Origin: Actinomycetota bacterium
GTDB taxonomy: Bacteria; Actinomycetota; Geothermincolia; Fen-727; Anoxymicrobiaceae
Assembly: GCA_020062425.1 (NCBI GenBank)
Contig: JAGUWJ010000070.1
Location: 1-57,520, forward strand
DNA: 57,520 nucleotides
Direction of reading: 5' to 3'
The translations under genes were made by a program, and so were the position numbers. This document shows positions 7,182 to 57,520 of the stretch, piece by piece. The first letter of the stretch is position 1. Every line of letters begins with the position of its first letter. Under the pieces are notes generated by a model that was given only the letters and a program-made list of their open reading frames with translations, did not search any database and had not been told where the DNA came from.

Positions 7182-7198
7182 AGCAGGCGCTGAGTCGA

Positions 7199-10572: not shown

Positions 10573-10584
10573 CTCCCTTCCTAT

Positions 10585-10621: not shown

Positions 10622-10666
10622 CAAGAGTTGCCTACGGGGGGCGTAGATTACCGCGATAGCCCGGCT

Positions 10667-11068
10667 TCACTGAGAACTCCCGGTCAGAGCGTCCTCTATG
10701 GCTTTGAGCACGCCCTTGCCGCTGACCGTGGCGCCGGATACAGTGTCCACCTCCAGCGTCTGCCCGTCGATGACCCTCTGAACCACAGTCTCCATCTGTT
10801 TCCTGTTTGTACTTCCTTCGACGATTGTTACCTCTTCTATCTTGCCGCCTTTGACGGTGACATCCACGGTGGCGGTGACGTGGAAGTACGCGTACTCTCC
10901 TCGGTACTTGCCGTCGGGGACCCTGGAGGCGCCAACAGCCTTTACCGTGATGTTCTTGGAGCCGTTCCAGAAGTGCCAAGCGTAAAGGCCGCCAGCTATC
11001 ACCACCAGCAGTAGCAGGACGATGACCACCAAGACGATCCCGAGTGCTATTTTGCCTTTCCTGCTCAT
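10667..11068 (-). CDS. membrane-anchored FMN-binding domain protein
   Basis: N-terminal TM helix, DGKYRGE, and flavinylation motif VDTVSGATVS; AAGGAGG RBS before ATG 11068. Confidence 0.88.
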   Translation of the reverse strand: MSRKGKIALGIVLVVIVLLLLVVIAGGLYAWHFWNGSKNITVKAVGASRVPDGKYRGEYAYFHVTATVDVTVKGGKIEEVTIVEGSTNRKQMETVVQRVIDGQTLEVDTVSGATVSGKGVLKAIEDALTGSSQ

Positions 11069-11078
11069 GCGAGCCTCC

Positions 11079-33005: not shown

Positions 33006-34247
33006 TTAGTCCACGGGTAGACCTTCGCGTTTAAGCCAGTCTTCGAACGGCTCGTGTCTGGTGGGCTCGTACCCCCCCTTGCCGAGCTTCCTGCCGGTCA
33101 TAGTGTACCGACCGAGCGAGCGAGCCGCCTGGACCAGCGCGTGCACGTGCTCGTGCGGTGTGCCGATCGGCACCAGATTGGCGAGCAGCGCGAAGCGCCC
33201 CTTTCCGGCACCGTCCCTGATCAGGCCTCTCACCGTCTCAAAGATGCGCTCGGGCGGGCCCTCCTCGATGAGCTCGGGGCGTACGTTCAGCATGAGGCAC
33301 ACATTCTTCTCGTCCGAGTACTCGCGCACTACTGGAACCCCCAGTGCCTCGTAGTCCTCAGCCCACACCAGCAGGAAGAGCGGGCGCAGCGCACTTACAG
33401 GGTTGCCCGCCATCATCTCCATCTTGACGTCCAGTATCTCCCTCGGGTCGCCGGCCTCCCTCTCCCCCCAGCTTCCCGTGTCGAGCACAGTGCGCATGAG
33501 TGAGTTGGTAGCCTTGATGACCTTCTGCACGTACGGCAGGCAAAACTCCCGCACCGCATCCACCTTCATGTTGGGAGCGGAGGCCCAGGCGTCGGACATC
33601 ACCACCATCGAGGGGTGGGCCACCTTCACCATGCTATCAATCCAGGGGACCACCACCTCCATGGAGAGGAACTCCATAAGGCGGTGTGCGAATGCGGGGT
33701 TCCGGCGCATGTCGCGCAGGAATCCCACGTAGCCGCGCGCCAGCACTGCCATGGTGAACGGCGAGCAGCAGTAGCACATGGGGGGCAGCTCCATGATGTC
33801 CATGAACCGGCGGTAGGACTCGAGGATGTACGGCATCCTGCCGCTCTTTCCCGGCACAGGCGGTTTGAGCTTCCTGAACTCCTCCTCGGAAGGGATGAGC
33901 GGCGAGCGCGAGTCGACGTCGGGCTCGCTCCCGTGCCTCCAGACGAGCGCCGCCCCCATCGCCTCCAGCTCGATGTTGTAAAAGTCGAACACCGGCGTGA
34001 AAAAGTCGAAGCCGAAGTACTTGGTGGTGTTGTAGGAGGCGTTCACGAACGGTACCGGCTCGCGGAAGAAAATCCTGGAGGAGAGCCCGTGGATTCCCAT
34101 TGCGTAGGTGTACGGCTGGATCAGGACCGGGACCCTGTCGGGGCGCCCAAAGAAACCCGCTATGAGGCGCTCGAATCCGTCGAGTTCGAAGACCCTGAGA
34201 CCCTTTGAGTAGGCAAGCGCGCGGTTGAGCCTGGCGTAAACGCCCAC
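33006..34247 (-). CDS. uroporphyrinogen decarboxylase / MtaA-CmuA methyltransferase superfamily protein
   Basis: PDRVPV, IELEAMGA, GRMPYILE, SPFTMAVLARG..FLRDM..NP, GTPHEHVHAL; follows a corrinoid protein. Confidence 0.8.
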   Translation of the reverse strand: MGVYARLNRALAYSKGLRVFELDGFERLIAGFFGRPDRVPVLIQPYTYAMGIHGLSSRIFFREPVPFVNASYNTTKYFGFDFFTPVFDFYNIELEAMGAALVWRHGSEPDVDSRSPLIPSEEEFRKLKPPVPGKSGRMPYILESYRRFMDIMELPPMCYCCSPFTMAVLARGYVGFLRDMRRNPAFAHRLMEFLSMEVVVPWIDSMVKVAHPSMVVMSDAWASAPNMKVDAVREFCLPYVQKVIKATNSLMRTVLDTGSWGEREAGDPREILDVKMEMMAGNPVSALRPLFLLVWAEDYEALGVPVVREYSDEKNVCLMLNVRPELIEEGPPERIFETVRGLIRDGAGKGRFALLANLVPIGTPHEHVHALVQAARSLGRYTMTGRKLGKGGYEPTRHEPFEDWLKREGLPVD

Positions 34248-34883
34248 CTAGCTCACCTCCAGCAGGCGGTCGGCGAGCCTCACCGCGGCGAAGGCGTCCT
34301 CCCCATAGCCGTCGGCGCCCACCGCGTCGGCGTACTCCTCGGTGACAGCCGCTCCGCCTACAATCACCTTCACTCTCGAGCGCAGGCCCGCAGCAATGAG
34401 CGCAGCCACCACCCCCTCGATGTTCCTCATGGTGGTGGTCATGTAGGCGCCGAGGCCCAGCACCCGGGCGTCGTGCTCGCGGACAGCCTCCACGAAACGC
34501 GCCGCCGGCACATCCACCCCCAGGTCGACGACTTCGTACATGGAGGCACGCAGCATTGCCATGACTATGTTCTTGCCGAGGTCGTGCGCGTCTCCCTCCA
34601 CCGTACCGATGACCACGCGCCCCTTCCAGCAGCCGGTCCCGGCCCGGAGCCCGGGCTCGAGCATGGTCATTACCTCCCTGAACGCTTCGCATGCGAGGAC
34701 CACATCGGGGAGGAAATACTCGTCATCCTGCCAGAGGCGCCCGGCCTCGTATACGCCTTCTATCGCGGCGTTCAGGACAACACCGGCCTCGACGCCTTCT
34801 TCGAGCGCGGCCCTGGCGGCGGCGCTGGCGTCTTCCTCCTCGCCTTCGCATACGCCCTTCTGCAGATCGTCATGCCAGCCCAA
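34248..34883 (-). CDS. corrinoid (cobalamin-binding) protein
   Basis: GTVEGDAHDLGKNIV (DxHxxG), DLGVDVP, IVGGAAV, ADGYGEDA; four-helix cap domain. Confidence 0.93.
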   Translation of the reverse strand: MGWHDDLQKGVCEGEEEDASAAARAALEEGVEAGVVLNAAIEGVYEAGRLWQDDEYFLPDVVLACEAFREVMTMLEPGLRAGTGCWKGRVVIGTVEGDAHDLGKNIVMAMLRASMYEVVDLGVDVPAARFVEAVREHDARVLGLGAYMTTTMRNIEGVVAALIAAGLRSRVKVIVGGAAVTEEYADAVGADGYGEDAFAAVRLADRLLEVS

Positions 34884-34980
34884 ATATACTCCTTTCCGGG
34901 TTTCCGAATCCTCATCACCTCGAGAAGGTGAGAATATCTGGTGATCGTTTTAATGTACAACCTGAAGGATTGCCGCGGAC

Positions 34981-36183
34981 TCAGGCGGGCGGCGGACCCA
35001 TAGCGCCGGAGGCGATCACCTGGTCGGCCTCGGTGGAAGACTTGCCCAGCAGCTCCTCCAGGAACCACCGGTTGTGCTCGCCCAGCGCGGGGGCCGGGCC
35101 GCGAACCTTGACCTCGCTGTTGGTGGCCTTGACCGCGGGCCCGAAGATGGTCAGCTTGCCCGCGTTCGGCTGGTCCAGCTCGACCAGCATGCCGCGCGCC
35201 GCGGTGTGCGGGTTCTCAACGACCTGCTTCACGTTGTTGACCGGGGCCGCCGGCACACCCTGCTCCATGAGCAGCGGGATGATCTCCTCGTTGGTGAACC
35301 GGGTGGACCACTCCTCGATGATCTTCTTCAACTCGGGCTCGTGCTCGTTACGCTTCATGACGTCGCTGAAGCGCTCGTCCTTCGCGAGCTCCGGCTTGCC
35401 CATGGCCTTGCACAGGTTCTCGAACGGCCCGTCGCCCGCGCAGATGATGAGCACGTAAGAGTCCTTGGTGCTGAAGGTGTCAAACGGCGTCACGTACGGG
35501 TAGCGGTTCCCGGTGCGCCCCGGTATGTTGCCGGTCACCGTGTAGTCTACGAACTTCGCCTCCAGCTGGTTTATGGCGACGTCGTACATGGATACGTCGA
35601 GATATTCGCCCTCCCCGGTGACCTCGCGGGCGAAGAGCGCCGCGGCTATGCTGAAGGCCGCGAAGATGGCGGTGGTGATGTCCACTATGAGGGTGCCGGT
35701 GCGGAGCGGAGGCCCGTCGGGGAACCCGGTGGTGCTCATGAGACCGGCCATGGCCTGGATGACCGCGTCGTAACCGGGAAGCGGCGAGAGCGGGCCGAAC
35801 TGCCCGTACCCAGATATCGAGCACATGACCAGCCTTGGATTGATGGCCTTGAGGGTCTCGTAATCGATGCCCAGCTTGGCCATGGTGCCCGGGGTGTAGT
35901 TCTCGACTACCACGTCGGAGACGGCGGCCAGCTCTTTGAAGAGCGCGACCCCCTCGGGGCTCTTCAGGTCGAGGGTTATGCCGCGTTTGCCGTGATTCAG
36001 CACCACGAACGAGACAGACATGCTGCCCTGGTACGGCGGGAACAGCCGTGCGTCGTCTCCACGGACGGGCTTCTCGACCTTGATGACGTCAGCTCCCATG
36101 TCGGAGAGGAAGAAAGTGCAACCCGGCCCCGCGACGGTGTTGGTGAAATCGATTACCCTCACACCTTCCAGCATTGAACGCAT
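34981..36183 (-). CDS. class III CoA-transferase (CaiB/BaiF family)
   Basis: LEGVRVIDFT..VAGP, MGADVIKVE, DVVVENY.PG, SISGYGQ.GP, GYD..IQA. Confidence 0.93.
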   Translation of the reverse strand: MRSMLEGVRVIDFTNTVAGPGCTFFLSDMGADVIKVEKPVRGDDARLFPPYQGSMSVSFVVLNHGKRGITLDLKSPEGVALFKELAAVSDVVVENYTPGTMAKLGIDYETLKAINPRLVMCSISGYGQFGPLSPLPGYDAVIQAMAGLMSTTGFPDGPPLRTGTLIVDITTAIFAAFSIAAALFAREVTGEGEYLDVSMYDVAINQLEAKFVDYTVTGNIPGRTGNRYPYVTPFDTFSTKDSYVLIICAGDGPFENLCKAMGKPELAKDERFSDVMKRNEHEPELKKIIEEWSTRFTNEEIIPLLMEQGVPAAPVNNVKQVVENPHTAARGMLVELDQPNAGKLTIFGPAVKATNSEVKVRGPAPALGEHNRWFLEELLGKSSTEADQVIASGAMGPPPA

Positions 36184-36459
36184 CTTGATCTCCTCTCGGT
36201 CAGGTACCGGGGTCGATTTCCCCGGCGGCGGTATCACTCCTGCAGTTCGCGTGCGCACCGATAGCTGGCTCCTGGTGAGATTCTACTATTACGGCGGTTT
36301 TAAGACATGTGGATCCAGATATGTCCTACGGGCTATTGACTCATCGGTGGACCAGTGAATAAGAATCGCGTTTATAGACTGTCATGTCATTAGTCAGGCA
36401 TGCCAGCCGGTCGGCGACTCGATGTGGTTACGGAGATGGCGAGGGCAAGGGGGGATCCA

Positions 36460-37794: not shown

Positions 37795-37840
37795 CAGCGG
37801 AAGCTAAGAACTAAAGACTGATCCGCCAGGACAGCCCGAA

Positions 37841-37882
37841 GGCCGCCTCCCCGGATTGTACCGTCCGGGGGGCGGCTTCCTT
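37841..37882 (+). terminator. GC-rich hairpin, possible intrinsic terminator
   Basis: GCCGCCTCCCCGGA-loop-TCCGGGGGGCGGC followed by a weak TTCCTT tail. Confidence 0.45.
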
Positions 37883-38141
37883 ATGCACGTAGAGCTAAGG
37901 GCGTGAAGCCCGACGGAGTCAACGAAATAGGCCGGGCTGGAGCAGTTGGAGAGTATGGTGTTCCTCTTGACGATCTCGATCTCAGACTAGCTTTCTTACA
38001 AGAAGTAGGCCGGATTCAGATGCTTGCATATCTTTTTGATTTCTGTATTATAGATTCCCACTAGTCACTGGCGTTGATTGTTGCCCTGTGCAGCCCGATT
38101 ATGAGGAGAGTTCTTCGCCCGGGATGAGGAGTTGACTCCAA

Positions 38142-40832
38142 GTGGCGAGTACCTCTATCCGTATAGACGGGAAACGAGCTTCAGTCTATCCTGACTCAAC
38201 AATCCTTGCCCTTGCCCGCAGCCTTGGCGTTTCGATTCCAACACTGTGCGACCACCCTCTCCTTACTCCCATAGGTTCCTGCGGTGTTTGCGTTGCGGAA
38301 GACCTTTCAAGCGGAAGACTCGTGACCACGTGTAACACACCTGCTGAGCCTGGCATGGATATAAGAACGGATTCGCCGAGGGCCCTCGAGGCTAGGAGGC
38401 GAACGCTCGAACTCATTCTTACCAATCACCCCGAGACATGCGTTATATGCGAGAAAGGAAACGCCTGCCAGCTGCGCGATCTCGCCTCTGGAATGGGCCT
38501 CGCGCTCTCGAGCGAGAAGCGTGTCGGTACCCTGCGCGGGATAGTGGACGCGAACCCGTTCATCCACCGTGACCTGTCCAAATGCATCGGCTGCCAGATC
38601 TGCGTGCGAGCCTGCAGGGAAATACAAGGCGCCGAAGCCGTGGAGTTCACCGGGATCAGCACGGGCAGCTCGCCACTGACGGCGAATGACAGCGAGCTAG
38701 CCGGCTCCGCCTGCGAGCTGTGTGGCCTCTGCGTCGCGATGTGCCCGGTGGGCGCACTCATCGAGAAACCGAGCAAGCATACAGGCACTGAGGATCGAAG
38801 GGCTACGGTAATTTGCCCCTACTGCGGGGTGGGCTGCACGCTCGAACTACGCATCCGCGAAGACCGTATCGTCGGCGTGGGTGCGGACGTAAGCGGCTCC
38901 GTGAACGGACCAAGTCTGTGCGCCAAGGGCAGATACGGGCTGGGCTACGTCGGTCACCCTGACCGCCTGACAGCTCCCCTCGTCCGCGAAGGTGACGAGC
39001 TGGTCGAGACATCTTGGGAAGACGCGCTCAAACGCTTCACTGAAGGCCTGCGGCGCATTACAGAAAAGCACGGCGCGGACGCAGTCGGGGTGCTCGCCTC
39101 GGCCAAAGCGACGAACGAGGAGAACTACCTCATACAGAAGTTCACCCGCGCCTGTATCGGCACCAACAACGTCGACCACTGCGCCAGGTTGTGCCACAGC
39201 CCGACCGTCGCCGGTCTGTCGGCAGCGTTTGGCAGCGGGGCCATGACCAACTCGCTCGAGGACCTCGCCGAGGCCGATGTCATCCTGCTCACCGGGACGA
39301 ACACCATCGAGAACCACCCCGTAATCGCGCAAATGATAAAGACGGCCGTCCTCTCAGGCGGAACGCGGCTAATCGTCAGCGATCCCAGGGATATATCGAT
39401 GGCACGTTACGCTGAGGTGACCCTTAGTCCGCGGCTGGGTACCGATGTCGCCTGGCTCAACGGAATGGCGAACGTGGTGCTGAGCGAGGGGCTGGCAGAC
39501 GAGCGCTTCATCAAGGAACGCACAGAGGACTTCGACGAGTGGCGCGCCTCGGTGGAACCATACACGCCGGAGCTAGTGCGTAAGATAACGGGCATAAAGC
39601 CAGCAGACTTGAAGTGGGCCGCGCGCCTCTACGCCTCGGCGAGCGCAGCGGCCATCTATTACGCCATGGGCATTACCCAACACTCCACGGGTACAGACAA
39701 TGTCAAGGCCGTTGCCAACCTCGCGATGCTTACCGGCAACATCGGCCGGCCGGGCACCGGGGTCAACCCGCTGCGCGGTCAGAACAACGTGCAGGGCGCC
39801 TGCGACGTGGGAGCGCTGCCAAACGTCTTCCCCGGGTACCAGCAGGTTACCGACAAGAAGGTCCGTAAGGAGTTCGAGAAAGCATGGGGAGTGAAACTCC
39901 CCGCTGCGCCCGGGCTCACGGTTACCGAGATGATAGAAGCCGCGGCGAAGGGCAAGCTCAAGGCGATGTACATCATAGGAGAGAACCCCGTGATGACAGA
40001 ACCCGACGCGAGCCACGCGGAAGCGGCGCTTTGCAAACTGGACTTTCTCGTCATTCAGGACATATTCCTCACTGAATCGGCGGCGATAGCCGACATCGTT
40101 CTGCCAAGCATGGCGTCCGTCGAGAAGGAGGGTACCTTCACTAACACCGAGCGCCTTGTGCAGAGATCGCGCGCCGCCGTTCCCGCCCCCAGCCAGGCCA
40201 GGAGCGACGCGGACATCGTATGCGACATCGCGGGACTCATGAAATACCCTATGAACTACTCGGGGCCGTCCGCGGTCATGGAGGAGATATCTTCACTTAC
40301 ACCGTCATACGGCGGCATTTCCTACAGCCGGCTCGGGCGGCGCGGATTGCGCTGGCCATGCCCGGACTCGAAGCACAGGGGCACCAAGATCCTTCACTTG
40401 AAAGAGTTCACGCGGGGCAAGGGGAAGTTCCACCCCGTCGAATACATACAACCGGCGGAGATGCCCGATGAAGAATACCCGTTCATTCTCACCACCGGGA
40501 GAATGCCCTACCAGTTCCATGCCGGATCGATGTCTCGCCGGTCGGCCGCTCTCGACGAATACACGCCCGAGGGCTGGGCAGAGCTGAACCCGAGTGACGC
40601 AAAAAGTCTTGGGATAAAGGAGGGCGATCCTATAGAGTTATCCTCCAGGCGGGGCACCGTTCGAACTACCGCCCGGCTGAGCAGACGCTCTCCAAGGGGA
40701 GCGGTCTTCATGAGTTTCCATTTCGCCGAACAGGCGGCAAACAAGTTGACAAACCCCGTCCTCGATAAGGAAGGAAAGATTCCGGAGTTCAAAGTCTGCG
40801 CGGTGCGGGTCGAACCGGCCGTCCCCGAGTGA
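38142..40832 (+). CDS. fdhF: formate dehydrogenase alpha subunit (Mo/W-bisPGD, Cys ligand) with NuoG-like N-terminal Fe-S domains
   Basis: 2Fe-2S (LC...GSCGVC...TC), HxxxCxxC, two CxxCxxCxxxC, CPYCGVGC...CAKG, active-site DHCARLCH, PLRGQNNVQG, PEFK. Confidence 0.93.
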   Translation: MASTSIRIDGKRASVYPDSTILALARSLGVSIPTLCDHPLLTPIGSCGVCVAEDLSSGRLVTTCNTPAEPGMDIRTDSPRALEARRRTLELILTNHPETCVICEKGNACQLRDLASGMGLALSSEKRVGTLRGIVDANPFIHRDLSKCIGCQICVRACREIQGAEAVEFTGISTGSSPLTANDSELAGSACELCGLCVAMCPVGALIEKPSKHTGTEDRRATVICPYCGVGCTLELRIREDRIVGVGADVSGSVNGPSLCAKGRYGLGYVGHPDRLTAPLVREGDELVETSWEDALKRFTEGLRRITEKHGADAVGVLASAKATNEENYLIQKFTRACIGTNNVDHCARLCHSPTVAGLSAAFGSGAMTNSLEDLAEADVILLTGTNTIENHPVIAQMIKTAVLSGGTRLIVSDPRDISMARYAEVTLSPRLGTDVAWLNGMANVVLSEGLADERFIKERTEDFDEWRASVEPYTPELVRKITGIKPADLKWAARLYASASAAAIYYAMGITQHSTGTDNVKAVANLAMLTGNIGRPGTGVNPLRGQNNVQGACDVGALPNVFPGYQQVTDKKVRKEFEKAWGVKLPAAPGLTVTEMIEAAAKGKLKAMYIIGENPVMTEPDASHAEAALCKLDFLVIQDIFLTESAAIADIVLPSMASVEKEGTFTNTERLVQRSRAAVPAPSQARSDADIVCDIAGLMKYPMNYSGPSAVMEEISSLTPSYGGISYSRLGRRGLRWPCPDSKHRGTKILHLKEFTRGKGKFHPVEYIQPAEMPDEEYPFILTTGRMPYQFHAGSMSRRSAALDEYTPEGWAELNPSDAKSLGIKEGDPIELSSRRGTVRTTARLSRRSPRGAVFMSFHFAEQAANKLTNPVLDKEGKIPEFKVCAVRVEPAVPE

Positions 40833-42493
40833 GGAGAGGCCTCGTGGATGTGCGCGGTCCTGGGAGTGCGCTGATCGAGCGTCTGCTCGAGGAGAGCGAC
40901 AGGAAAGGGTTCCTTGAACCTGCGGCGGTAGATCGTGTTTCGCGAGAGCTTTCAGTGCCCGCGAGCAGGGGCTACTCCATCGCGGGGCAACTGGAGTACT
41001 TTCGCTTCTCTCCTTCGCCGGAGGGACAGGTGAAGATCTGTAGCGGTCCCGCTTGCAGGCTCGCCGGCTCATCGCATACAGTTCAAGCTTTGGAAGCCCT
41101 GCCAGGCGCTGGCCCGGTGCCGCTTCTGGGAAGTCCGATCTGGCATACCCCTATCCTCGCTGCAGTACCTGACAGGAAAGGCACCGCGATGGCCCGAAGC
41201 GTCAAGCCCGGAGATGAGCTGGCAACGGCGGACCTCCAGAGGGCTCCTCTGGCGACCGTAGAGGAGCCCACCAGGGAGCTTCTATCGGGCAAGGGCGAAC
41301 TGCTCGGGGGCCTCAAGCGCCGCCGCTCGCCCGCGGATTACTTCAGGTCGGGCGCGAGACGTCTCGTCATGTTCCTGGAGCGGAGCACTCCGGGAGAGAC
41401 GCTTCGCGCGATGAAAGCCTCACGCCTTATCGACACCGCCTCCGGTCACGAGGTCGCCGACATCATCGAGGATATCGCGAACGGAGAAGCGCCTTCCGGA
41501 ATGATCGTCTGCGACACGGGAGGGCGCGAGCCCGAAAACGACACCGCCTCAATCCTGGCGTGGGCAGACCCGATGGGAGTTATCGAGGGGATGCTTATTG
41601 CGGCGCACGCTGCTGGAGTGGGCCGGGTCATGCTTTTCGTGCCGCACGAGCACCGTGGGCTCAAGGAATCATTCGCCCGCTCAATTGCTGATCTCAAGCG
41701 CTATGGATTGTGGCCAGCGGTCGATGTAGAGATGTTCGCCGCGCCCAATTTCATCCCCGCCGACCGCGAGATTGGCATCGCGTCGCTCTACGAAGGTCTG
41801 ACCTTGAGCGAGGGCGCCTCCCGCGCCAAAGCTTCACCCATGCGCCTCTGGGGTGCCGATGTCTTTATTTCGGACCCTGAGGTCTTTCTGAGGATTTCTA
41901 AGTTGGTTTCCGGCCGCGGAAAAGCAGCGACGTCGAGAATCATTTCGGTAGGCGGCCGTGTCAACAGGCCATGCGTCGCCGAGGCGGCACTCACTTCGAC
42001 GGCTGGCGAGGTCATCAGTGAGTCCGCGGGCGGAATCCCCGACGGCAGTGCCATCAAGGCGGTACACTTCGGCGGAGCCTACGGTGGCCCACTCAGGCCG
42101 GTGGCGTTGAATTCTGGGCTGCGTAGCCTGTTCGGCAGGCTCGATAGCGCGGGGAGCGGCCAGATCCTTTTGATCGACCGAGACACCTGCATGGTCTCGT
42201 GGGCCGAGTACTTCGCTTGGCTCGGCGAGCAGCTTTGCTGCGGAGCATGCGCCGTGGGAAGGCTGGGGCCCTCCTTCGTGAGACGGCTGATCGGAAAAAT
42301 AACCTCTGGAAAGGGAGAGCTGTCAGACCTCGAGGAGATACGCAACACTATCGAACTCATGAAGGAGACCTCGCTTTGCCCGCAGGGCGGCAGGATCCTG
42401 AACCCGGTCCTGTTCGCCCTCGAAAACTTTTCTGGAGAGTTTGAAGAACACATTAGCAAGAAGAAGTGCCAAGCTGGAGTCTGCTGGCCATAG
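40829..42493 (+). CDS. degenerate NuoE-NuoF (HydC/HydB, FdhB-like) fusion protein
   Basis: NuoE-like N-terminus (ICSGPAC), NuoF-like body (DPMGVIEGMLIAAHA, SVGGRVNRP, KAVHFGG..GG, IDRDTCMV), C-terminal CCGACAVGRLG...SLCPQG...CQAGVC; canonical flavin/NADH motifs altered. Confidence 0.75.
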   Translation: MRRGLVDVRGPGSALIERLLEESDRKGFLEPAAVDRVSRELSVPASRGYSIAGQLEYFRFSPSPEGQVKICSGPACRLAGSSHTVQALEALPGAGPVPLLGSPIWHTPILAAVPDRKGTAMARSVKPGDELATADLQRAPLATVEEPTRELLSGKGELLGGLKRRRSPADYFRSGARRLVMFLERSTPGETLRAMKASRLIDTASGHEVADIIEDIANGEAPSGMIVCDTGGREPENDTASILAWADPMGVIEGMLIAAHAAGVGRVMLFVPHEHRGLKESFARSIADLKRYGLWPAVDVEMFAAPNFIPADREIGIASLYEGLTLSEGASRAKASPMRLWGADVFISDPEVFLRISKLVSGRGKAATSRIISVGGRVNRPCVAEAALTSTAGEVISESAGGIPDGSAIKAVHFGGAYGGPLRPVALNSGLRSLFGRLDSAGSGQILLIDRDTCMVSWAEYFAWLGEQLCCGACAVGRLGPSFVRRLIGKITSGKGELSDLEEIRNTIELMKETSLCPQGGRILNPVLFALENFSGEFEEHISKKKCQAGVCWP

Positions 42494-42535
42494 CGAATAA
42501 TCCTCTCGGTCCAGGCGGAACTGCAAGGAGTTGAG

Positions 42536-43195
42536 ATGAAGAGTATTACGGCTCGGAAGCCCCTCGAGGAAATCCTCGAGTGCCTCGGCACCGCAAAGAG
42601 GGTCTTCATCGTTGGATGCGGGACATGCCCGACCCTCCTCGGCACCGGCGGCGTCAACCAGGTGGCGGAACTCGCCGCTTCGCTTAAGGAAACGGGCAAG
42701 CGCATAGAGGGTACAACCGTGCTGCCCGTCGCGTGCGAACCGCTGCCTTTCGAGGCGCGCGGGGAGTTCCTCGCAGCCGCTGAAAAAGCCGACGCAGTCC
42801 TTGTGATGTCCTGCGCCTACGGTGTAAGGCAGGTGGCGGACATCGTCTCGGGACCAACCCTTCCCGCCTTGAATACGCTTTTTATCGGCCGCGAAGAGGA
42901 ACCTGGCCTTTTCATAGAAGAGTGCAGCCAGTGTGGAGACTGCATTCTCGGGCTGACGGGAGGTATCTGCCCGATAACCCGTTGCGTGAAGAGCCTTTTC
43001 AATGGTCCCTGCGGCGGCTCCGTTGGAGGCAAGTGCGAGATCGATGAGAAGGTGCTCTGCGGCTGGCAGCTCATCTACGACCGGCTCAAGGCACTCGGAC
43101 GCCTCGACCAGATGGACGTAATCATACCAGTGCGCGACTGGAGCAAGTCCTCCTCGGGAGGTCCGAGGAGATACTCGATGAATGAGAAGAAGTAA
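42536..43195 (+). CDS. metV: methylenetetrahydrofolate reductase small subunit MetV
   Basis: VGCGTCPT..GG, CSQCGDCIL..TGGICPITRC.KSL.NGPCGG...GKCE...CGWQLIYDRL. Confidence 0.9.
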   Translation: MKSITARKPLEEILECLGTAKRVFIVGCGTCPTLLGTGGVNQVAELAASLKETGKRIEGTTVLPVACEPLPFEARGEFLAAAEKADAVLVMSCAYGVRQVADIVSGPTLPALNTLFIGREEEPGLFIEECSQCGDCILGLTGGICPITRCVKSLFNGPCGGSVGGKCEIDEKVLCGWQLIYDRLKALGRLDQMDVIIPVRDWSKSSSGGPRRYSMNEKK

Positions 43196-43203
43196 GGCAG
43201 GGC

Positions 43204-44430
43204 ATGCGGTACGAACTGCTCTATGAGATATCGAAACCGGTCATAGAAGCGGTGGGCGAGAATAACGTCCTGCGCTCCATCGTCGAGAGCACAGCGAAGG
43301 GAACAGGCGCTAAGGGTTGCTCGATTCTGGTTCTATCGCCTGACGGCAAGCGCCTCGAGCACAAGGTCTCCTTCGGCCTGAGTGAGGAGTACCTGCGCAA
43401 AGGCGAGATAACCGTGAACGAAGCGATAAGCAAGATGCTTGAAGGCGAGCCCGCAAATATCGTAGATGTATCCCGCGACCCGGGCATCCAGTACCCCGAA
43501 CAGGCTGTGAAGGAAGGCATCGCTTCCCTACTGTCAATTCCTATACGCGGGCTGTCGGGCGATATCAAGGGGCTCTTACGGTTATATATGTCCAATGTTA
43601 AGAAGTTCGGTCGCGGTGAAATAGACTTCCTCGTCTCCATCGCCGACCTGGGAGGCATAGTCCTCGAGAAAGCGAAAACCTATGACCGCTTGGTCGGCGA
43701 CGTGGACGACGCGAAGTCCGAGATCGAGAAACTCGAACAGGACCGCGAGATGTTCTTGCGGTTCCTCTCGATGGTTGCGCATGATCTTAAGGCGCCGGTT
43801 GCGGCGGTTGAAAGCTACTTGAAGGTAATGCTTCGCGGCACCCCCGGCCCGTTGACAGAAAAGCAAGAGACCTGGCTAAGCCGCAGTATCTCGCGCCTGG
43901 ACAGCATGACCGAGCTAATAAGCGACCTTCTCGACGTCTCCCGATTGGAGACGGGGCAGATTACTCCCGAGATGGAAACGACAACACTCAACGGCGTGTT
44001 GATGGGGTGTGTCGAGACGGCTAGAGGCCTCGCGGACCCCGGGGGTGTCAAAATCGAGACGGAGATCGAGTCTCCCTTCCCAGCCTTTTTCGGTTCCGGG
44101 AGGCGGCTCGTCCAGGTCATCAACAATCTGGTATCCAACGCCGTCCGTTACACGGTAGAGGGAGGCACGATCTTCATCCGGGCGAGACAGGAGGAAGGCC
44201 ACCTGCTGGTCGTTGTAGAGGACACCGGCTCGGGAATCAAACCCGAGGTGATGTCAAAGATATTCGACGATTTCTTCAGGGGTGACCAGGAGACTGAGGG
44301 TACCGGCCTCGGCCTTTCCATATGTAAGCGCATCGTTGAACTTCATGGCGGAAGAATCTGGGCCGAGAGCCCAGTGCCCGGCAAGGCCGGTGGAACGCGT
44401 TTCTCGTTCACTGTCCCTTTGAATCGGTGA
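43204..44430 (+). CDS. cytoplasmic GAF-domain sensor histidine kinase
   Basis: GAF region (IASLLSIPI...GLLRLY), H-box VAHDLKAP, N-box NNLVSNAVRY, G1 DTGSG, G2 GTGLGL; no TM segment. Confidence 0.92.
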   Translation: MRYELLYEISKPVIEAVGENNVLRSIVESTAKGTGAKGCSILVLSPDGKRLEHKVSFGLSEEYLRKGEITVNEAISKMLEGEPANIVDVSRDPGIQYPEQAVKEGIASLLSIPIRGLSGDIKGLLRLYMSNVKKFGRGEIDFLVSIADLGGIVLEKAKTYDRLVGDVDDAKSEIEKLEQDREMFLRFLSMVAHDLKAPVAAVESYLKVMLRGTPGPLTEKQETWLSRSISRLDSMTELISDLLDVSRLETGQITPEMETTTLNGVLMGCVETARGLADPGGVKIETEIESPFPAFFGSGRRLVQVINNLVSNAVRYTVEGGTIFIRARQEEGHLLVVVEDTGSGIKPEVMSKIFDDFFRGDQETEGTGLGLSICKRIVELHGGRIWAESPVPGKAGGTRFSFTVPLNR

Positions 44431-44466
44431 AAGACCGCGGAGTAGACTCAGAAGGGGTTTATTGAG

Positions 44467-45384
44467 ATGAAAGCTGGAACGAATCTGGAGAAGGTCCTCA
44501 AGGCCGGGAACTTCGCTGTAACTGCGGAGATAGGCCCTCCGAAAGGCGGTTCGGCGAAGGTCATCGAGTCTAAGGGCGAGGAACTGAGGCACTCGGCGGA
44601 CGCTTTCAACGTGACCGACAACCAGACCGCCGTGGTCCGTATGTCCAGCCTGGCCGCCTGCGCCATACTAAGGAGAATGGGCCTCGATCCGGTCATGCAG
44701 ATGCTTTGTCGCGACCGTAACCGAATAATGCTCCAGAGCGACATCTGTGGAGCCGTGGCGCTGGGGATCGGTAACCTGCTGTGCCTTACAGGGGACCACG
44801 TGAAGTTCGGCAATCATCCCGAGTCCAAGGTCGTATTCGATATCGACTCGGTCCAGCTCATTGCCACGGTCAAGGCTATGCGGGACGGCGGCAAATTTAT
44901 CAGCGGTGAAGAGATAGCCGGGCCTATCCCTATGTTCATAGGCGCAGTCGAGAACCCTTACGCGGACCCATTCGAGTACCGCACTGCGAGGCTCGATAAA
45001 AAGGTCAAGGCCGGAGCCGACTTCATTCAAACTCAGGCCGTTTACGATGTTCCCAAGTTCTCGCAGTGGATGGATGAGATATGCGCCGCGGGCATCGACG
45101 AGCGGACTCATATCCTCGCTGGTATAATCCCGGTGAAGGCCGTCGGAATGGCGCGTTACATGCGGGACTACGTCTCTGGCGTCGAGATACCGGATTGGAT
45201 GATCAAGAGGCTCGAAAAGTCCAAAGACGTAAAGGAAGAAGGGATTCAGATAATTCTCGAAATAATAGAGGAAATCAAGCTTATCCCCGGTGTCCATGGA
45301 ATACATATCCAAGCTGTCGGCTGGGAGGAGATCGTCCCTGAGATCGTTGAGCGGGCGGGCCTGCTGCCGAGACCGATGCTGTAG
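44467..45384 (+). CDS. metF: methylenetetrahydrofolate reductase
   Basis: VTAEIGPPKG, NVTDNQ, CRDRNR, LCLTGDH, KKVKAGADFIQTQ, GIHI. Confidence 0.93.
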   Translation: MKAGTNLEKVLKAGNFAVTAEIGPPKGGSAKVIESKGEELRHSADAFNVTDNQTAVVRMSSLAACAILRRMGLDPVMQMLCRDRNRIMLQSDICGAVALGIGNLLCLTGDHVKFGNHPESKVVFDIDSVQLIATVKAMRDGGKFISGEEIAGPIPMFIGAVENPYADPFEYRTARLDKKVKAGADFIQTQAVYDVPKFSQWMDEICAAGIDERTHILAGIIPVKAVGMARYMRDYVSGVEIPDWMIKRLEKSKDVKEEGIQIILEIIEEIKLIPGVHGIHIQAVGWEEIVPEIVERAGLLPRPML

Positions 45385-45397: not shown

Positions 45398-45802
45398 TTG
45401 GCGGCAAAGATACTCGTGGTGGATGACGACCCCGACATCAGAGACGTTCTCGAAGAACTGCTGGTTGGTGAAGGATTCGAGGTTGTGACTGCCAATGATG
45501 GCGTTCAAGGGCTTGATGCGATCAAAAAGGAAGATCCCGATATGATGATCCTTGACCTGCTCATGCCAGTGCTGGACGGATTTGGCGTGTGCAAGCAGTT
45601 GAGCGACCCACGTTGGTCTAAATGGAAGGATATGCCTGTCCTGATTCTCACCTCGGTCCGAGAAGAGGTAAGCCAGCGGCGTTACGAGCTCGAGACCGGA
45701 TTGAGCCTCGATGTCGACGACTACGTGGAGAAACCGATAGATCCCGACGTAGTACTGGAACGAGTCAGGAACTTGCTAGCTCGTAGAGATATCGATATAT
45801 AA
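45398..45802 (+). CDS. single-domain response regulator
   Basis: TTG start after GGGAGG; ILVVDDD, ILDLLMP, YVEKP. Confidence 0.9.
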   Translation: MAAKILVVDDDPDIRDVLEELLVGEGFEVVTANDGVQGLDAIKKEDPDMMILDLLMPVLDGFGVCKQLSDPRWSKWKDMPVLILTSVREEVSQRRYELETGLSLDVDDYVEKPIDPDVVLERVRNLLARRDIDI

Positions 45803-45839: not shown

Positions 45840-46214
45840 ATGAAAAAAGTGCTTCTAGTTGATGATGACAAGGACTTCGTAGAATCCACTAAGGCGGTGC
45901 TCGAGGAGAGATTCGAGGTAATCGTGGCCAGTGACGGCGACGAGGGGATTGAAGTCGCCAGGGCGGAGAAGCCCGACCTCATCATCCTGGATGTGATCAT
46001 GCCTACCGAGGACGGCTTCAGCGCCGCCGAGGAGATGAAGAACGACCCCGAGCTTGCGGGAATTCCCATTATGATGCTTACAAGCTTCGCGGCTCGCGGG
46101 TCCCAGACAAATATCCCTCGCAGCAGGGGGATGGAGCTCCAGTCGGAGGACTACATCGACAAGCCGGTCGATCCCGACGTCCTTCTGGAGCACGCGGAGA
46201 AGCTGCTCAGCTAG
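45840..46214 (+). CDS. single-domain response regulator
   Basis: VLLVDDD, ILDVIMP, YIDKP; AGGAGG RBS. Confidence 0.92.
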   Translation: MKKVLLVDDDKDFVESTKAVLEERFEVIVASDGDEGIEVARAEKPDLIILDVIMPTEDGFSAAEEMKNDPELAGIPIMMLTSFAARGSQTNIPRSRGMELQSEDYIDKPVDPDVLLEHAEKLLS

Positions 46215-53726: not shown

Positions 53727-53918
53727 TTCTGATTACCTCCCCGGGTTCCCCTTGAAAGGTTTTCGCTTCTTCACGCTTAGACGCGCATGCGCAAGCCCGG
53801 GTTTTCGACAGGGCTCCTCCGGCCGCCCCGTCTCGGATCAGCCATTGTGCGATAATGGGCGATGCCTGAACGAGCCCGGACTGCGGGGCGGCGCGGCTTC
53901 CTATCAGGAGGTACCAGT

Positions 53919-54740
53919 ATGCTGGGGCGAGCATTCGTGGAATTCGGGATTACGCCATGGATGATGCGCAGGGGCATCAATTTTGTCCAGGGATTATGGG
54001 CCCTGTCGAGGCTGCCTCGAACAGGCGAGTTTCATCCCTGGACGCGCGAGGACAAAAATGACATTCGCTGGCTGCCCATCAACGAGGAGCTGCAAACGGG
54101 TGAAGACACGCCCGTGCCGCTGGACCTGCTACTCAAGTTCATCGAGGAAGCGTCGCACCGGGTGGTCTACGATTTCTGTCCGTGCCGCTTCGGCAGCAAA
54201 TGCACGGATTACCCTGTCGATATCGGGTGCCTTTTGATGGGAGACTCGGCGCTCGAATCTCCAACCTCCATCAGCCACGAGGCGACGGTCGAGGAGGCAA
54301 AGGCGCTGGCGCTTCGCGCTGTTGAGGCTGGACTGGTACCTGTTGTAGGCAAGGCTAAGGTGGACAATTTCATCTTCGGCATAAGGGACAGAGCGCGACT
54401 GCTGACCGTCTGTTTCTGCTGCGAATGCTGCTGCTTCCTGGACTGCACCAGGTTTATACCGCTAGAGACCCTGGACACCATGTTTCCGCGTCTGAGCGGC
54501 ATCAATCTAGAGGTCACCGAAGCCTGTGTTGGCTGCGGGACATGCGCTGAGCACTGCTATATCCGTGCGATAGAGGTGAAAGATAACAGGGCTACCATCG
54601 GGGAGTACTGTCGTGCCTGTGGCCGTTGCGCGAACGTCTGCCCTAACGACGCGATAGAGATACGCATCGACGACCCTGATTTCCTTGAAGAAAGCTACCG
54701 AAGGATTCGCAAGCGCGTCAGTTACGACGGGAGTGGTTGA
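53919..54740 (+). CDS. 4Fe-4S binding protein with Cys-rich N-terminal domain
   Basis: CPCR...C...C, CFCCECCC, CVGCGTCAEHC, CRACGRCANVCP; AGGAGG RBS before ATG 53919. Confidence 0.88.
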   Translation: MLGRAFVEFGITPWMMRRGINFVQGLWALSRLPRTGEFHPWTREDKNDIRWLPINEELQTGEDTPVPLDLLLKFIEEASHRVVYDFCPCRFGSKCTDYPVDIGCLLMGDSALESPTSISHEATVEEAKALALRAVEAGLVPVVGKAKVDNFIFGIRDRARLLTVCFCCECCCFLDCTRFIPLETLDTMFPRLSGINLEVTEACVGCGTCAEHCYIRAIEVKDNRATIGEYCRACGRCANVCPNDAIEIRIDDPDFLEESYRRIRKRVSYDGSG

Positions 54741-54834
54741 GCGGCTCTCCTGAGCTGAGCGCAACCACTACGTGTTGCCGGTCCGGCGAACACTTGCGAA
54801 TACGCCGGGCCGGTACACATAGGACTGGGACTGC

Positions 54835-55107
54835 CTAGTAGCGGGACGAACGCTGCGGGCGCTCCTCCCTCGGCCTTGCCACGTTGACATTCAGACTGCG
54901 GCCGTCTACGTCTTTGCCGTTCAAGGCATCGATCGCCGCCTGGCCTTCGGTGTCATTGCTCATCTCGACAAAACCGAATCCCTTCGACCTGCCGGTTCCG
55001 CGATCCATGATCACGTCGGCTGAATCCACCGTGCCGTACTGGCTGAAAGCCTGTCTGATGTCTTCCTCGCTGGTTGAATAGCTGAGGTTTCCAACATATA
55101 TCTTCAT
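54835..55107 (-). CDS. RRM (RNP-1) RNA-binding protein
   Basis: RNP2 IYVGNL and RNP1 KGFGFVEM; AAGGAGG RBS. Confidence 0.95.
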   Translation of the reverse strand: MKIYVGNLSYSTSEEDIRQAFSQYGTVDSADVIMDRGTGRSKGFGFVEMSNDTEGQAAIDALNGKDVDGRSLNVNVARPREERPQRSSRY

Positions 55108-55116
55108 TCTTCTGCA

Positions 55117-55191
55117 CCTCCTTTGTGCATAAAAAAAGCCCCGAGATCAGATCCTCGGGACAATAACTTCACTACCTAAGAACTTTAACTC
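55117..55191 (-). promoter_or_regulatory. conserved 5' leader with terminator-like hairpin, copy 2 (RRM gene)
   Basis: Minus strand GAGT...TTCTTAGGT-12-GTCCCGAGG(ATCTGA)TCTCGGGGC-TTTTTTT-ATGC...AGGAGG; extended -10 TGCTACAAT at 55206-55198. Confidence 0.75.
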
Positions 55192-55359
55192 AAGCGCATT
55201 GTAGCACATTATCCGCCGTTGTGCATCTTTTCATACCGGCGGGCGCTGCGCGCAGCAAGAGGTCGGCAACGGTTTCGCCTGCCACTTGCCACTGCGTTTT
55301 GTATATCATTGTATAAAGGGAGAAGATCTTTCGAGCGACCGAGCGGCGGGAGGTTCGCC

Positions 55360-57520
55360 ATGGCAACCGCTGTCACTACCACGGAGGCCACCCTGTCCGA
55401 TAGGGCCGCCAGGCTGAAGCAGGCTCTTCTTTCGAGCCCCTATGAGATTGACGTCGAGCGGGCGCGCTCGTACACCGAATCCTGGAAGGTCACGACTTCC
55501 GAACCGCCTTGCATGAAAGCCGCGCTGGCGCTCCGCGACGCCCTGCGCGATATGACCATCTTCATAGACGAAGACGAACTGCTTGCGGGCTCCAAGACCG
55601 CGAAGAGGCTTGCCGGGGTAATACCGGTGGAGCGGGGCGAGTTCAACACCGTGATGGAGTTCGAGCTGGGGCGACTTCTAACCAGGAAGAGCCACCCGTT
55701 TCACATCGAAGAGTCGGAGCGCGCCGAGCTGGAGAAGGGAATCCTCCCCTACTGGAAAGGCCGCTCCGTCAGGGACCTCAAGGCCAGGTTGTGGAAAGCC
55801 GCCGGCATCTACGAGCCTCTGCGGCTGGGGCCGGTGTCTCTCTACAGGATAATCAGGGGCGCGGGGCTCGCGACCACAGTTAAGATACTGTACCTCTCAC
55901 TCGGTAAGTCACTGCTGTCCATCCCCAAGGTCCAGGCGATGCAGCGCGAGCTTGCCGCGCTCCGGCCCAACCTCGCGCTCACCGTCTTCGATGTCCAGGG
56001 GCATTTCGTGCCCGGTTTCAGGCGCGTCCTTGAGCTGGGATTCGAGGGGAAAGCCGAGCGAGCACACCAAGCATTACAAGGCGTCGCGGGGAGCGGGACG
56101 GAAGCCGACCGGAAACGCGACTTCTACTCGGCGGTTGAGGTCGCGGCCTCGGCGGTCTGCGAGCACTCCCTCCGTTACGCGGAACTGGCGGACGAAAAGG
56201 CGGAGACGGCCTCCCCAGCGAGGGCAGGGGAACTCAAAGACATCGCCCGGAGGTGCCGCAGGGTCCCGGCAGGACCGCCTTCCTCCTTCATGGAGGCCGT
56301 GCAGAGCCTGTGGATGACCCAGGTGGTACTGGGCATCAGCTACGGCATGGCCGGAATACTTTCTGTCGGGCGCCTGGACCAGTACCTCTACCGGTACTAC
56401 AGGGAGGACCTTGAGGCGGGGCGCGTGACCCGGGAGCAGGCGCTGGAGGTGCTCGAGGAGTACATGGTCAAGCTGGCGACCGAGATAATAATGCTGGTCG
56501 AAGCCGGCAGGGAAACCGCGAGCGAGATGGGGGTCGGCTCGAATACCGTCACCATAGGCGGGGTGGACAGCGAGGGCGGGTGCGCGGTGAACGAGGTCAC
56601 CTGGCTGGTTCTGGATGCGCACGACAACGTGAAAGCCCTCGCCAACAACCTCTGCGTCAGGATCGCAAAGAACACCCCCGACGAGTTTGTACGGCGGGTC
56701 TGCCGTTCGTACCGCAGGACGAACGGCGTAGCGGTCTTCAACGACGAGCGTATAATCCTCGAGCTGCTGGCCGACGGCTTCTCGCTGGAGGACGCGCGTG
56801 ACTACTCCATCGTAGGATGCGTCGAGCCGACCTCGACCGGCAACTGCTTCGCCTGCACCGCGGGGAACGACATCTCGCTCGCCGGGGTGCTGGAGATGTC
56901 ATTGAACGAGGGCCGCATGCTCTTCTCGGGCAAGCGTATCGGGGCCCGCACGCCCGACCCCGGGAGCTTTTCGAGCTTCGAGGACGTCAAGCGGGCCTTC
57001 CTCGCCCAGCTCGAGTTCAACGTCGCCAGACTGGTGGAATCGGTAGAGCTGCTGGACCGCGCCTACGCGGAGGAGTTCCCCAGCCCGCTGGTCTCCTCCA
57101 CCGTGGAGGGGTGCCTGGAGAGCGGCACTGACATAACCAGGGGCGGCGCCCATTATGACTTCGACTCCATCACCGGCAGGGGTCTCGGCACGGTTGCCAA
57201 CTCGCTCGCGGCTATGCGCTGGGCGGTGTTCGAACGTGGGCTCGTGACAATGGAAGAGTTGGTGCGGCTCATGCGGACTAACTTCAGGGGCCAGGAGAAG
57301 ATGCGGATGATCCTGACTAGCGGCGCCCCCAAGTACGGAAACGATGACGGCGACGTGGACGAGCTCGCCCGCTGGGTCACGGATACCTTCTGCGCCGAGG
57401 TGCGGAAACACGCCTGCGGCAGGGGCGGCTTCTACAGGCCGGGCATGTTCTCGTACGGCGTCCACGTGATAGACGGACTCTACCTCGGCGCGACGCCGGA
57501 CGGCAGGCGAGCCGGCGAGC
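55360..57520 (+). CDS. glycyl radical enzyme (PFL superfamily, non-PFL type), truncated by the window end
   Basis: Not in the ORF track, presumably because no stop falls inside the window; GGGAGG-ATG 55360 reads MATAVTT...DVERARSYTESW...I.EDELLAG; GRLDQYLY, active-site loop SIVGCVEP (TGC at 56818, in frame), APKYGNDD, GATPDGR. Confidence 0.92.
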   Translation, partial: MATAVTTTEATLSDRAARLKQALLSSPYEIDVERARSYTESWKVTTSEPPCMKAALALRDALRDMTIFIDEDELLAGSKTAKRLAGVIPVERGEFNTVMEFELGRLLTRKSHPFHIEESERAELEKGILPYWKGRSVRDLKARLWKAAGIYEPLRLGPVSLYRIIRGAGLATTVKILYLSLGKSLLSIPKVQAMQRELAALRPNLALTVFDVQGHFVPGFRRVLELGFEGKAERAHQALQGVAGSGTEADRKRDFYSAVEVAASAVCEHSLRYAELADEKAETASPARAGELKDIARRCRRVPAGPPSSFMEAVQSLWMTQVVLGISYGMAGILSVGRLDQYLYRYYREDLEAGRVTREQALEVLEEYMVKLATEIIMLVEAGRETASEMGVGSNTVTIGGVDSEGGCAVNEVTWLVLDAHDNVKALANNLCVRIAKNTPDEFVRRVCRSYRRTNGVAVFNDERIILELLADGFSLEDARDYSIVGCVEPTSTGNCFACTAGNDISLAGVLEMSLNEGRMLFSGKRIGARTPDPGSFSSFEDVKRAFLAQLEFNVARLVESVELLDRAYAEEFPSPLVSSTVEGCLESGTDITRGGAHYDFDSITGRGLGTVANSLAAMRWAVFERGLVTMEELVRLMRTNFRGQEKMRMILTSGAPKYGNDDGDVDELARWVTDTFCAEVRKHACGRGGFYRPGMFSYGVHVIDGLYLGATPDGRRAGE

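Follow-up and report, generated by a model that had tools for sequence, protein, structure and literature searches.

We analysed a 57,520-nucleotide (nt) stretch of DNA, hereafter the window (contig JAGUWJ010000070.1 of assembly GCA_020062425.1), from a member of the class Ca. Geothermincolia, Actinomycetota, in which a formate dehydrogenase (FDH) gene precedes metV and metF, the genes of a MetVF-type methylene-tetrahydrofolate (methylene-THF) reductase (MTHFR). A first-pass annotation had placed five genes, from the FDH gene to metF, in one operon. All five genes and the GTGA overlap between the first two lie exactly as described there, but the unit is two receiver-only regulators longer and runs to position 46214. 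The block is encoded on the forward strand and is preceded by an intergenic region of 347 nt (37795..38141), a putative promoter leader that contains an AT-rich stretch and, as ribosome-binding site, GAGGAG. The first gene, fdhA (38142..40832), encodes an FDH alpha subunit of the Cys type with a NuoG-like N-terminal domain (896 amino acids, aa). It is followed by a gene for a fused NuoE-like/NuoF-like protein of 554 aa (40829..42493), which Pfam and NCBIfam match at its two ends only and which we name nuoEF*. Next come metV (42536..43195; 219 aa), encoding the iron-sulfur (Fe-S) subunit of MetVF, a gene for a cytoplasmic sensor histidine kinase with the Pfam domains GAF, HisKA and HATPase_c (43204..44430; 408 aa), and metF (44467..45384; 305 aa), encoding the catalytic flavoprotein subunit. 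Two response regulators that consist of a receiver only close the block, the first with a TTG start at 45398 (45398..45802; PF00072, 85 bits), the second at 45840..46214 (PF00072, 77 bits).

The genes are tightly packed. The GTG start of nuoEF* overlaps the TGA stop of fdhA, the remaining intergenic gaps within the block measure 8-42 nt, and the gene directly 3' of the block lies on the opposite strand. Overlaps of 4 nt between start and stop were also seen elsewhere, between nuoEF* and metV in two relatives (L021, L022) and between NuoF and metV in L184, a locus from a Dehalococcoidales metagenome-assembled genome. A scan for consensus promoters and terminators performed no better than on shuffled sequences (2 against 2.7 expected, 9 against 6.7 expected), and no Rfam family reached its gathering threshold anywhere in the window, where neither a molybdenum cofactor nor a THF riboswitch was found. 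We propose that the seven genes are one regulated unit encoding a formate-driven MetVF-type MTHFR, a reading of the gene content to which we give an even chance.

The arrangement is strongly conserved. The first-pass annotation had singled out the order FDH gene, nuoEF-like gene, metV, metF, and the synteny survey bore it out: the complete order, from fdhA through nuoEF*, metV, kinase and metF to the two response regulators, was found in 12 of 12 complete related loci besides the window (L115-L120, L122-L126, L128) and, as far as the contigs extend, in the contig-cut loci L025 and L121. These loci come from Ca. Anoxymicrobiaceae, Ca. Geothermincola and Ca. Solincola, and the order is kept across four families of the class. 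The flanks of the block vary between genomes, and the seven genes therefore travel as a block, an arrangement that is far beyond chance. The kinase gene separates metV from metF in every locus resolved gene by gene, in the window as well as in all 12 complete related loci and in L025, so that metV is not immediately upstream of metF. The response regulator pair is likewise conserved in all complete loci. Both receivers (132-134 and 124 aa) lack a DNA-binding output, and the pair is kept from Geothermincolia to Dehalococcoidia. This hints at a phosphorelay or at control at the protein level rather than at a classical transcription factor.

Other known entries for electrons were searched for at the same loci. 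Family searches of the proteins encoded in the window block found no hdr, mvhD or rnfC gene, and no hdr or mvhD gene lies within or adjoining the block in the 12 complete Geothermincolia loci. A local deletion of such genes was looked for as well, and no relative of the class has hdr or mvhD between the block genes.

The distribution of the block was followed with two of its proteins. Full-length matches to NuoEF* occur in 16 of 41 genomes searched, and in 16 of these 16 a kinase ortholog lies on the same contig within about 3 kb; in these genomes nuoEF* stands only ever beside metV, kinase and metF. A NuoEF* profile searched against 1.84 billion representative proteins returned about 15 clusters above 320 bits and below that generic NuoF and HydB proteins. 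Scanning the genome contigs with the single protein yielded three distant matches only; the relatives came from the genome search. Kinase orthologs (at least 55% identity) are present in 18 of 51 genomes of the class, namely in 5 of 17 of the window's own family (the window's genome included), 11 of 24 of family f6, 1 of 5 of family f5 and the single genome of family f7. The block is therefore accessory and patchy. Genomes of family f6 have a second, paralogous kinase, 41-48% identical, at another locus (G039:C4:22500-23717, G033:C1:169409-170626 and 17 further places).

FdhA carries the features of an active enzyme. It reaches 825 bits with TIGR01591 (cut-off 666) and has NuoG-type 2Fe-2S/4Fe-4S domains at its N-terminus. 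The closest proteins in the PDB, which align over the full length, are the alpha subunit of M. extorquens FDH1 (7vw6_A, 727 bits) and R. capsulatus FdsA (6tg9_A). The HCARL-C-H motif (Cys351-His352), Arg545 (in PLRGQNNVQG) and all Fe-S motifs are conserved. FdhA thus shares with M. extorquens FDH1 (7vw6, 7e5z, 7xqw) and with FdsABG of R. capsulatus and C. necator (6tg9, 6vw7), whose alpha subunits it matches full-length at 725-727 bits, a bis-pterin alpha subunit with a catalytic selenocysteine (Sec)/Cys-His-Arg triad; unlike in these enzymes, the genes of the block are welded to metV and metF. The triad is present in 14 of 14 FdhA orthologs, in contrast to 0 of 47 FdhA-like proteins from the X-type MetVF clusters discussed below. 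Codon 351 is TGC (Cys) in four of the 14 orthologs (window, L119, L124, L126) and an in-frame TGA in an otherwise open frame in the other ten. We read this TGA as Sec because it stands at the catalytic residue and the frame is intact. The 60 nt downstream of the TGA/TGC codon had the same folding energy as shuffled sequences (z 0.14-0.62), and no selenocysteine insertion sequence hairpin could be distinguished in them. The 13 Geothermincolia block proteins form one clade (support 100) in a tree built from 69 long FdhA-type sequences; this clade joins other live FDHs, while the 47 X-type FdhA-like proteins lie across a fully supported branch. Judged by its residues, the FDH of the block is catalytically intact.

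NuoEF* presents the opposite picture, as the first-pass annotation had recognized when it called the protein degenerate. Pfam finds PF01257 at residues 12-90 (33.9 bits) and PF10589 at residues 461-541 (54.1 bits) only; the flavin mononucleotide (FMN) domain PF01512, which scores 99-160 bits in relatives, gives no match, and TIGR01959 reaches 104 bits against a cut-off of 559. We aligned NuoEF* proteins with intact NuoFs from this genome and related loci. The four motifs RGRGGAGFP, NADEGDPGAF, GAGAFVCGEE and PPFP, which we take to mark the FMN/NADH site, are all present in the intact NuoFs and all replaced in nine of nine NuoEF* sequences, three of which have lost part of the region by deletion. 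In the NuoE part only C71 and C76 are invariant among the cysteines, together with H106, and the second Cys pair is replaced, leaving two of the four Cys of the 2Fe-2S site. The N3-type 4Fe-4S motif reads C470-C471-x2-C474-x2-G477 ... C517, with an invariant Gly (G477) in place of the third Cys; its four cysteines C470, C471, C474 and C517 are invariant, too. The best sequence matches of NuoEF* are HydB chains, from about residue 226 onward only, but NuoEF* stops right after the CxxxxC and lacks the 2x[4Fe-4S] ferredoxin domain that follows this motif at the C-terminus of HydB.

The overall fold seems to have survived this loss. An AlphaFold2 model of NuoEF* (pLDDT 75.6, pTM 0.80) superposes in Foldseek over its full length on the beta subunit of FDH1 (7vw6_B/7xqw_B, TM 0.71-0.74) and also on HydB, NfnB and NuoF. 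Estimates of dN/dS, which are rough as dS is near saturation, were 0.15-0.30 for nuoEF*, 0.09-0.17 for fdhA and 0.04-0.07 for metF, and indicate that nuoEF* is under purifying selection. A pseudogene is ruled out by these values together with the open frame in nine of nine sequences. Model and motifs together suggest that NuoEF* keeps the NuoF/FDH1-beta fold and has lost the FMN/NADH site. With FDH1 beta it shares the fused NuoE-NuoF architecture and the fold, but it differs in the missing FMN/NADH motifs, in the two remaining Cys of the 2Fe-2S site and in an N3 motif that reads CCxxCxxG instead of CxxCxxC. Compared to the bifurcating enzymes of the Bfu type (HydABC, NfnABC/Stn, FdhA-NuoEF), NuoEF* lacks the FMN motifs of the B subunit and the C-terminal ferredoxin domain. 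Since the four motifs are lost and the HydB ferredoxin domain is absent, MetV is the sole recognizable acceptor site left.

Both MTHFR subunits are readily identified. MetV matches PF12225 (122 bits) and has 12 Cys that are invariant in 14 sequences (C28, C31, C67, C93, C130, C133, C136, C145, C150, C159, C167, C175); outside the class, its nearest relatives are 47-55% identical and come from 79 loci of Dehalococcoidia, Desulfobacterota, Syntrophomonadaceae, Gaiellales and others. MetF is a PF02219 TIM barrel (145 bits against a cut-off of 24, profile positions 2-287). In a MetF tree of 186 rows, the window protein falls in a Geothermincolia clade of 15 rows (support 99), nested in a set of 63 rows (support 100; a 61-tip subtree in the midpoint-rooted drawing). 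Its sister is a Chloroflexota clade whose rows are mostly kinase-linked, the others being without a detected kinase or in Hdr context. Window MetF shows 64-71% identity to MetFs from Dehalococcoidia and Anaerolineales loci in which a kinase is likewise embedded and two receivers are present, and the kinase is indeed a conserved part of a MetV-kinase-MetF-receiver-receiver module shared with Chloroflexota.

The most instructive comparison is with a NuoEFG-linked X type (group III) of MetFV that Yi et al. (2021, PMC8515935) predicted, with Dethiosulfatarculus sandiegensis as the type example, and that was missing from the described MetVF systems listed in the first-pass annotation. The X type is not known to have been purified; in that account it is flagged as unstudied and as widespread in Desulfobacterales and Chloroflexi, and is speculated to bifurcate electrons. 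We surveyed the 79 loci of the MetV relatives, 53 of which have at least 6.3 kb of upstream DNA. In 48 of the 53, a long FdhA-like gene, NuoE and a NuoF::GltD fusion of about 1030 aa stand ahead of metV-metF; three of the other five have a fragmented FdhA-like match and two NuoF::GltD alone. Many Desulfobacterota X-type loci (L027, L040, L041, L048, L051, L055 and others; around positions 1400-2500) have an extra, highly divergent MetF-like gene directly upstream of the dead FdhA-like gene, whose product is 22-27% identical (PF02219, 59.7 bits in L055). Like the X type, the block has homologs of NuoG (FdhA-like), NuoE and NuoF upstream of metV and metF and co-directional with them. However, the X-type FdhA-like protein lacks the catalytic triad and its NuoF is intact and joined to a GltD/NfnB-like NADPH module, whereas the block combines a live FDH with a lost flavin site. 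Furthermore, the block has NuoE and NuoF fused, lacks GltD, has the kinase splitting metV from metF, and its MetF and FdhA stand outside the X-type clades; 74 X-type MetF rows fall elsewhere in the MetF tree, which holds no reference sequences of Yi et al. themselves. The MetV of the block, in contrast, has its greatest similarity (47-55% identity) to X-type MetV. On this evidence, the block is a derivative of the NuoEFG-linked MetVF clusters in which the FDH-like and NuoF-like roles are inverted, and not a wholly new kind. The possibly new MTHFR type envisaged in the first-pass annotation would thus belong to a wider family rather than stand alone.

Chloroflexota show a further input to the same core. 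In the sister clade, MetV-kinase-MetF is most commonly preceded by a NuoG-N Fe-S protein of 225-240 aa that lacks the molybdopterin domain, by NuoE and by an intact NuoF of 397 aa (PF01512, 143-160 bits); other inputs are NuoF::GltD in some loci and HdrA-MvhD in Anaerolineales. The block shares with these modules the kinase, the two receivers and a NuoG-type Fe-S domain upstream, but their NuoF is intact and their NuoG-N protein mostly bare. NAD(P)H is the likely donor where NuoF is intact. Taken together, these layouts show the NuoG-type Fe-S domain family as the usual partner of the MetV clade to which the block belongs, as far as gene order can tell. In the literature searched we found no published description of these NuoG-N/NuoEF/MetV-kinase-MetF-receiver-receiver modules. 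The Dehalococcoidales locus L184 (3705-11766) encodes a Sec-FdhA, an 81-aa NuoE stub, a 428-aa NuoF, MetV, a membrane-anchored kinase, MetF and two receivers; the FMN motifs of its NuoF are partly decayed (PF01512, 99 bits compared to 143-160). L184 is apparently an intermediate between NADH-type and formate-type modules. It is nested among Chloroflexota in the MetF tree, so that a live FDH with a decaying NuoF occurs at two separate places of the tree. Three other Dehalococcoidales loci (L171, L175, L190; about 1-11750) carry, all co-directional, NuoF::GltD, a live Cys-FdhA, a NuoG-N-like Fe-S protein, NuoE, an intact NuoF and the MetV-kinase-MetF-receiver-receiver module.

Relatives of the module that retain an intact NuoF or NuoF-GltD raise the question whether NuoEF* harbors a cryptic nucleotide or flavin site. 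The block would then encode an NAD(P)+-dependent FDH like MeFDH1/FdsABG or an NAD(P)H-using MTHFR of the X type, possibly bifurcating, as Yi et al. (2021, PMC8515935) speculated for the latter. The full-length NuoF/FDH1-beta fold (TM 0.71-0.74) would suit such a site. However, PF01512 finds no match where relatives score 99-160 bits, every FMN/NADH motif is replaced in all nine sequences and the region is partly deleted in three, and NuoEF* has neither a GltD module nor a ferredoxin domain. We therefore regard a cryptic site as hardly probable.

Two further MetVF systems deserve comparison. RnfC is a relative of NuoF. The RnfC2-MetVF enzyme of Acetobacterium woodii ('3S', group II in Yi et al., 2021, PMC8515935) therefore resembles the block in combining MetVF with an extra NuoF-related subunit that supplies electrons, but RnfC2 binds NADH and a flavin, whereas NuoEF* has lost this site, an FDH is present instead, and the block contains no RnfC-type gene. 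HdrABC-MvhD-MetVF (Moorella type, '6S') has the MetVF core in common with the block, which differs in that no hdr or mvhD gene adjoins it. The form of this system described for marine Chloroflexi has phoBR-like genes flanking metF (Sewell et al., 2017, PMC5736913), and the HdrA-MvhD input of the Anaerolineales sister loci corresponds to it. A two-component pair around metF was found in the Anaerolineales loci L173 and L193 and also in L176 and L181, in the same broad MetF clade as the block. A cluster of live FDH, flavin-less NuoEF and MetVF was not found described in the literature searched.

Based on these comparisons, we propose that FdhA, NuoEF*, MetV and MetF form one soluble complex in which formate reduces methylene-THF, a proposal that in our judgment could equally well prove right or wrong. 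FdhA, with its Mo/W-bis-pterin site (Cys in the window, Sec in most relatives), would oxidize formate, and the electrons would run through the Fe-S chain of its NuoG-like N-terminal domain to MetV, either directly or via the single surviving N3-type cluster of NuoEF*. MetV would pass them to the flavin of MetF, where methylene-THF would be reduced to methyl-THF. In the sister modules, a bare Fe-S protein of the NuoG type is retained between NuoF and MetV, and MetV may therefore dock on the NuoG-like domain of FdhA. NuoEF* would have no dehydrogenase role and would serve as scaffold or wire; it may be retained as the structural partner of the NuoG-like domain, perhaps contributing its one remaining cluster, and its faster evolution fits a scaffold. 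The GAF kinase and the two receiver-only regulators would switch the system, whose expression or activity probably responds through them to a metabolic signal that the GAF domain perceives. The coupling is supported by the strict co-occurrence and the partial translational coupling of the block genes. Entries for NAD(P)H or through a ferredoxin domain, Hdr or Rnf are all missing from the block, and formate is therefore the only visible electron source. Textbook potentials are about -430 mV for the formate couple and about -200 mV for methylene-/methyl-THF. By these values the opposite direction would be strongly endergonic, and the block encodes no third site; we therefore propose that electrons flow from formate to methylene-THF.

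The remainder of the genome places the block next to a second set of enzymes. Another metV-metF pair lies at the start of contig C120 of the same genome; in the relative G004 the second pair stands inside an acs cluster (acsD-cooS-acsB-acsC-metV2-metF2-x-radical SAM-acsE). Contig C18 (L106, G000, 1326-7068) carries a canonical NuoE-HydB-FdhA(Sec)-MvhD set, whose HydB has an intact FMN domain and the 2x[4Fe-4S] domain, and G004 has an FDH set of the Bfu type with a 449-aa MvhD fusion (L112, 12313-18895) that adjoins acs-metV2-metF2-acsE. EtfA and HdrA-like genes with an mvhD match were found on contig C144, mvhD matches on contigs C18, C144 and C133, and cooS, cdhD, folD and fchA on contig C50. 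The earlier statement that rnfC2, hdr and mvhD are missing is thus correct for the locus, but hdrA-like and mvhD genes occur elsewhere in the genome. From its gene content, the block is a second, separately regulated set of FDH and MTHFR in an organism with the Wood-Ljungdahl pathway. The suggestion that formate is the donor retains its basis, as the FDH appears intact and is the only visible donor, but it now concerns an accessory second MTHFR.

Divergent from the block and upstream of it, on the reverse strand of the window (33006-36258), lie genes for an MtaA/UroD-like methyltransferase, a B12-binding corrinoid protein and a family III CoA-transferase. Corrinoid methyltransferase genes were considered as block members and ruled out, as a search of the loci of nine relatives (L016-L024 and L008; ten stretches, because G005 spans two contigs) returned matches in 0 of 9. 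L125 does have a corrinoid-protein match upstream of its block. In G039 a UroD-like methyltransferase is encoded close to the block (L021, 16077-17249), and in G030 a MEDS (methanogen/methylotroph DcmR sensory) protein just downstream of it (L020, 14894-16036). The latter two are weak hints of a link to the metabolism of methyl compounds. These neighbors bear on an oxidative, methylotrophic role, in which MetVF would oxidize methyl-THF, the FDH would oxidize the resulting formate, and both would feed a common acceptor docked on the complex in a confurcation-like manner. The corrinoid protein and the MtaA/UroD-like methyltransferase of the window (33006-34883) and the genes in L021 and L020 fit such a role, and averaging the textbook values of the two couples gives about -315 mV, which would match NAD+. 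However, no third substrate site is encoded, the methyltransferase neighbors recur in none of the nine relatives' loci, and with two sites only the reduction of CO2 by methyl-THF is strongly endergonic. We consider this role very improbable.

Several observations weigh against a formate-driven complex. Only 18 of the 51 genomes of the class have the block, and the core pathway can do without it, since the genome encodes another MetVF, whose counterpart in G004 belongs to the acs cluster, together with a canonical NuoE-HydB-FdhA(Sec)-MvhD set. The Gly in place of a 4Fe-4S ligand makes the NuoEF* cluster itself uncertain. nuoEF* evolves 1.3-3 times faster than its neighbors, as far as the nearly saturated dS allows such a comparison, and may be a passenger in decay. 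MetV of the block has no extra docking segment relative to MetV2 of the acs cluster in our alignment, and the MetV profile had no match in the PDB and hence no solved MetV structure to model on. Finally, direct electron transfer from formate to methylene-THF would dissipate about 44 kJ/mol (calculated from textbook potentials), with no obvious energy-conserving device.

Some of these points would equally suit two co-regulated enzymes, with FdhA/NuoEF* feeding a diffusible carrier such as ferredoxin or a small protein and MetVF acting as an ordinary ferredoxin-dependent two-subunit MTHFR. The shared operon would then serve the methyl branch, possibly with a specialized copy that the two-component system switches on during growth on formate or methyl compounds. 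MetVF enzymes with no additional subunit are known, and reduced ferredoxin is the donor proposed for them (PMC8760232, PMC8515935). Wood-Ljungdahl genes often cluster without complex formation, relative G004 has its second metVF in the acs cluster, and MetV lacks an extra docking segment. Corrinoid or methyltransferase genes adjoin the window block and lie near the block in L125 and L021, but these neighbors are not conserved. More importantly, FdhA/NuoEF* has no recognizable domain for interaction with ferredoxin (the C-terminal 2x[4Fe-4S] of HydB is missing), the block contains no ferredoxin gene, and nuoEF* was not found away from metV in those of the 41 genomes searched that have a full-length match. 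In addition, a NuoG-N-type Fe-S protein without catalytic function stands ahead of related MetV-kinase-MetF modules, and such a protein is sensible only as a bound wire. We therefore consider two separate, co-regulated enzymes possible and yet on the whole unlikely.

Two other features of the window lie further from the block. At 53862-57519, a gene for a 292-aa 4Fe-4S protein is followed by one, cut off at the end of the window, for a pyruvate-formate-lyase-like glycyl radical enzyme; from its family, the enzyme is a possible internal source of formate, or may perform other radical chemistry. A single open reading frame at 226-1068 combines a MerR-type helix-turn-helix (residues 6-66) with a TetR-type helix-turn-helix (residues 99-142), an unusual double-helix-turn-helix regulator.

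The electron donor of MetVF and the energy coupling of this most exergonic step of the Wood-Ljungdahl pathway have been described as a long-standing open question (PMC8760232, PMC8515935). With all recognizable NAD(P)H, ferredoxin and Hdr entries stripped and an intact FDH left, the block is an unusually clean test case for direct coupling to formate, and it yields a directly testable hypothesis of formate-driven methylene-THF reduction. Seen across the phyla, one MetVF core swaps its input: a dead FdhA with a live NuoF::GltD, a bare NuoG-N with a live NuoF, or a live FdhA with a decaying NuoF. Tentatively, and at somewhat less than even chances, the block may represent a fifth MetVF type, in which formate replaces NAD(P)H or ferredoxin, an FDH of the selenium/cysteine kind replaces the NuoG-like wire, the NuoF remnant serves as a flavin-less adaptor, and kinase and receivers exert control at the protein level. 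If this is true, formate itself could meet the cost of a key carbon-fixation step. The block is also relevant to acetogenesis from formate in those Actinomycetota of the subsurface and of hot springs that lack cultured members.

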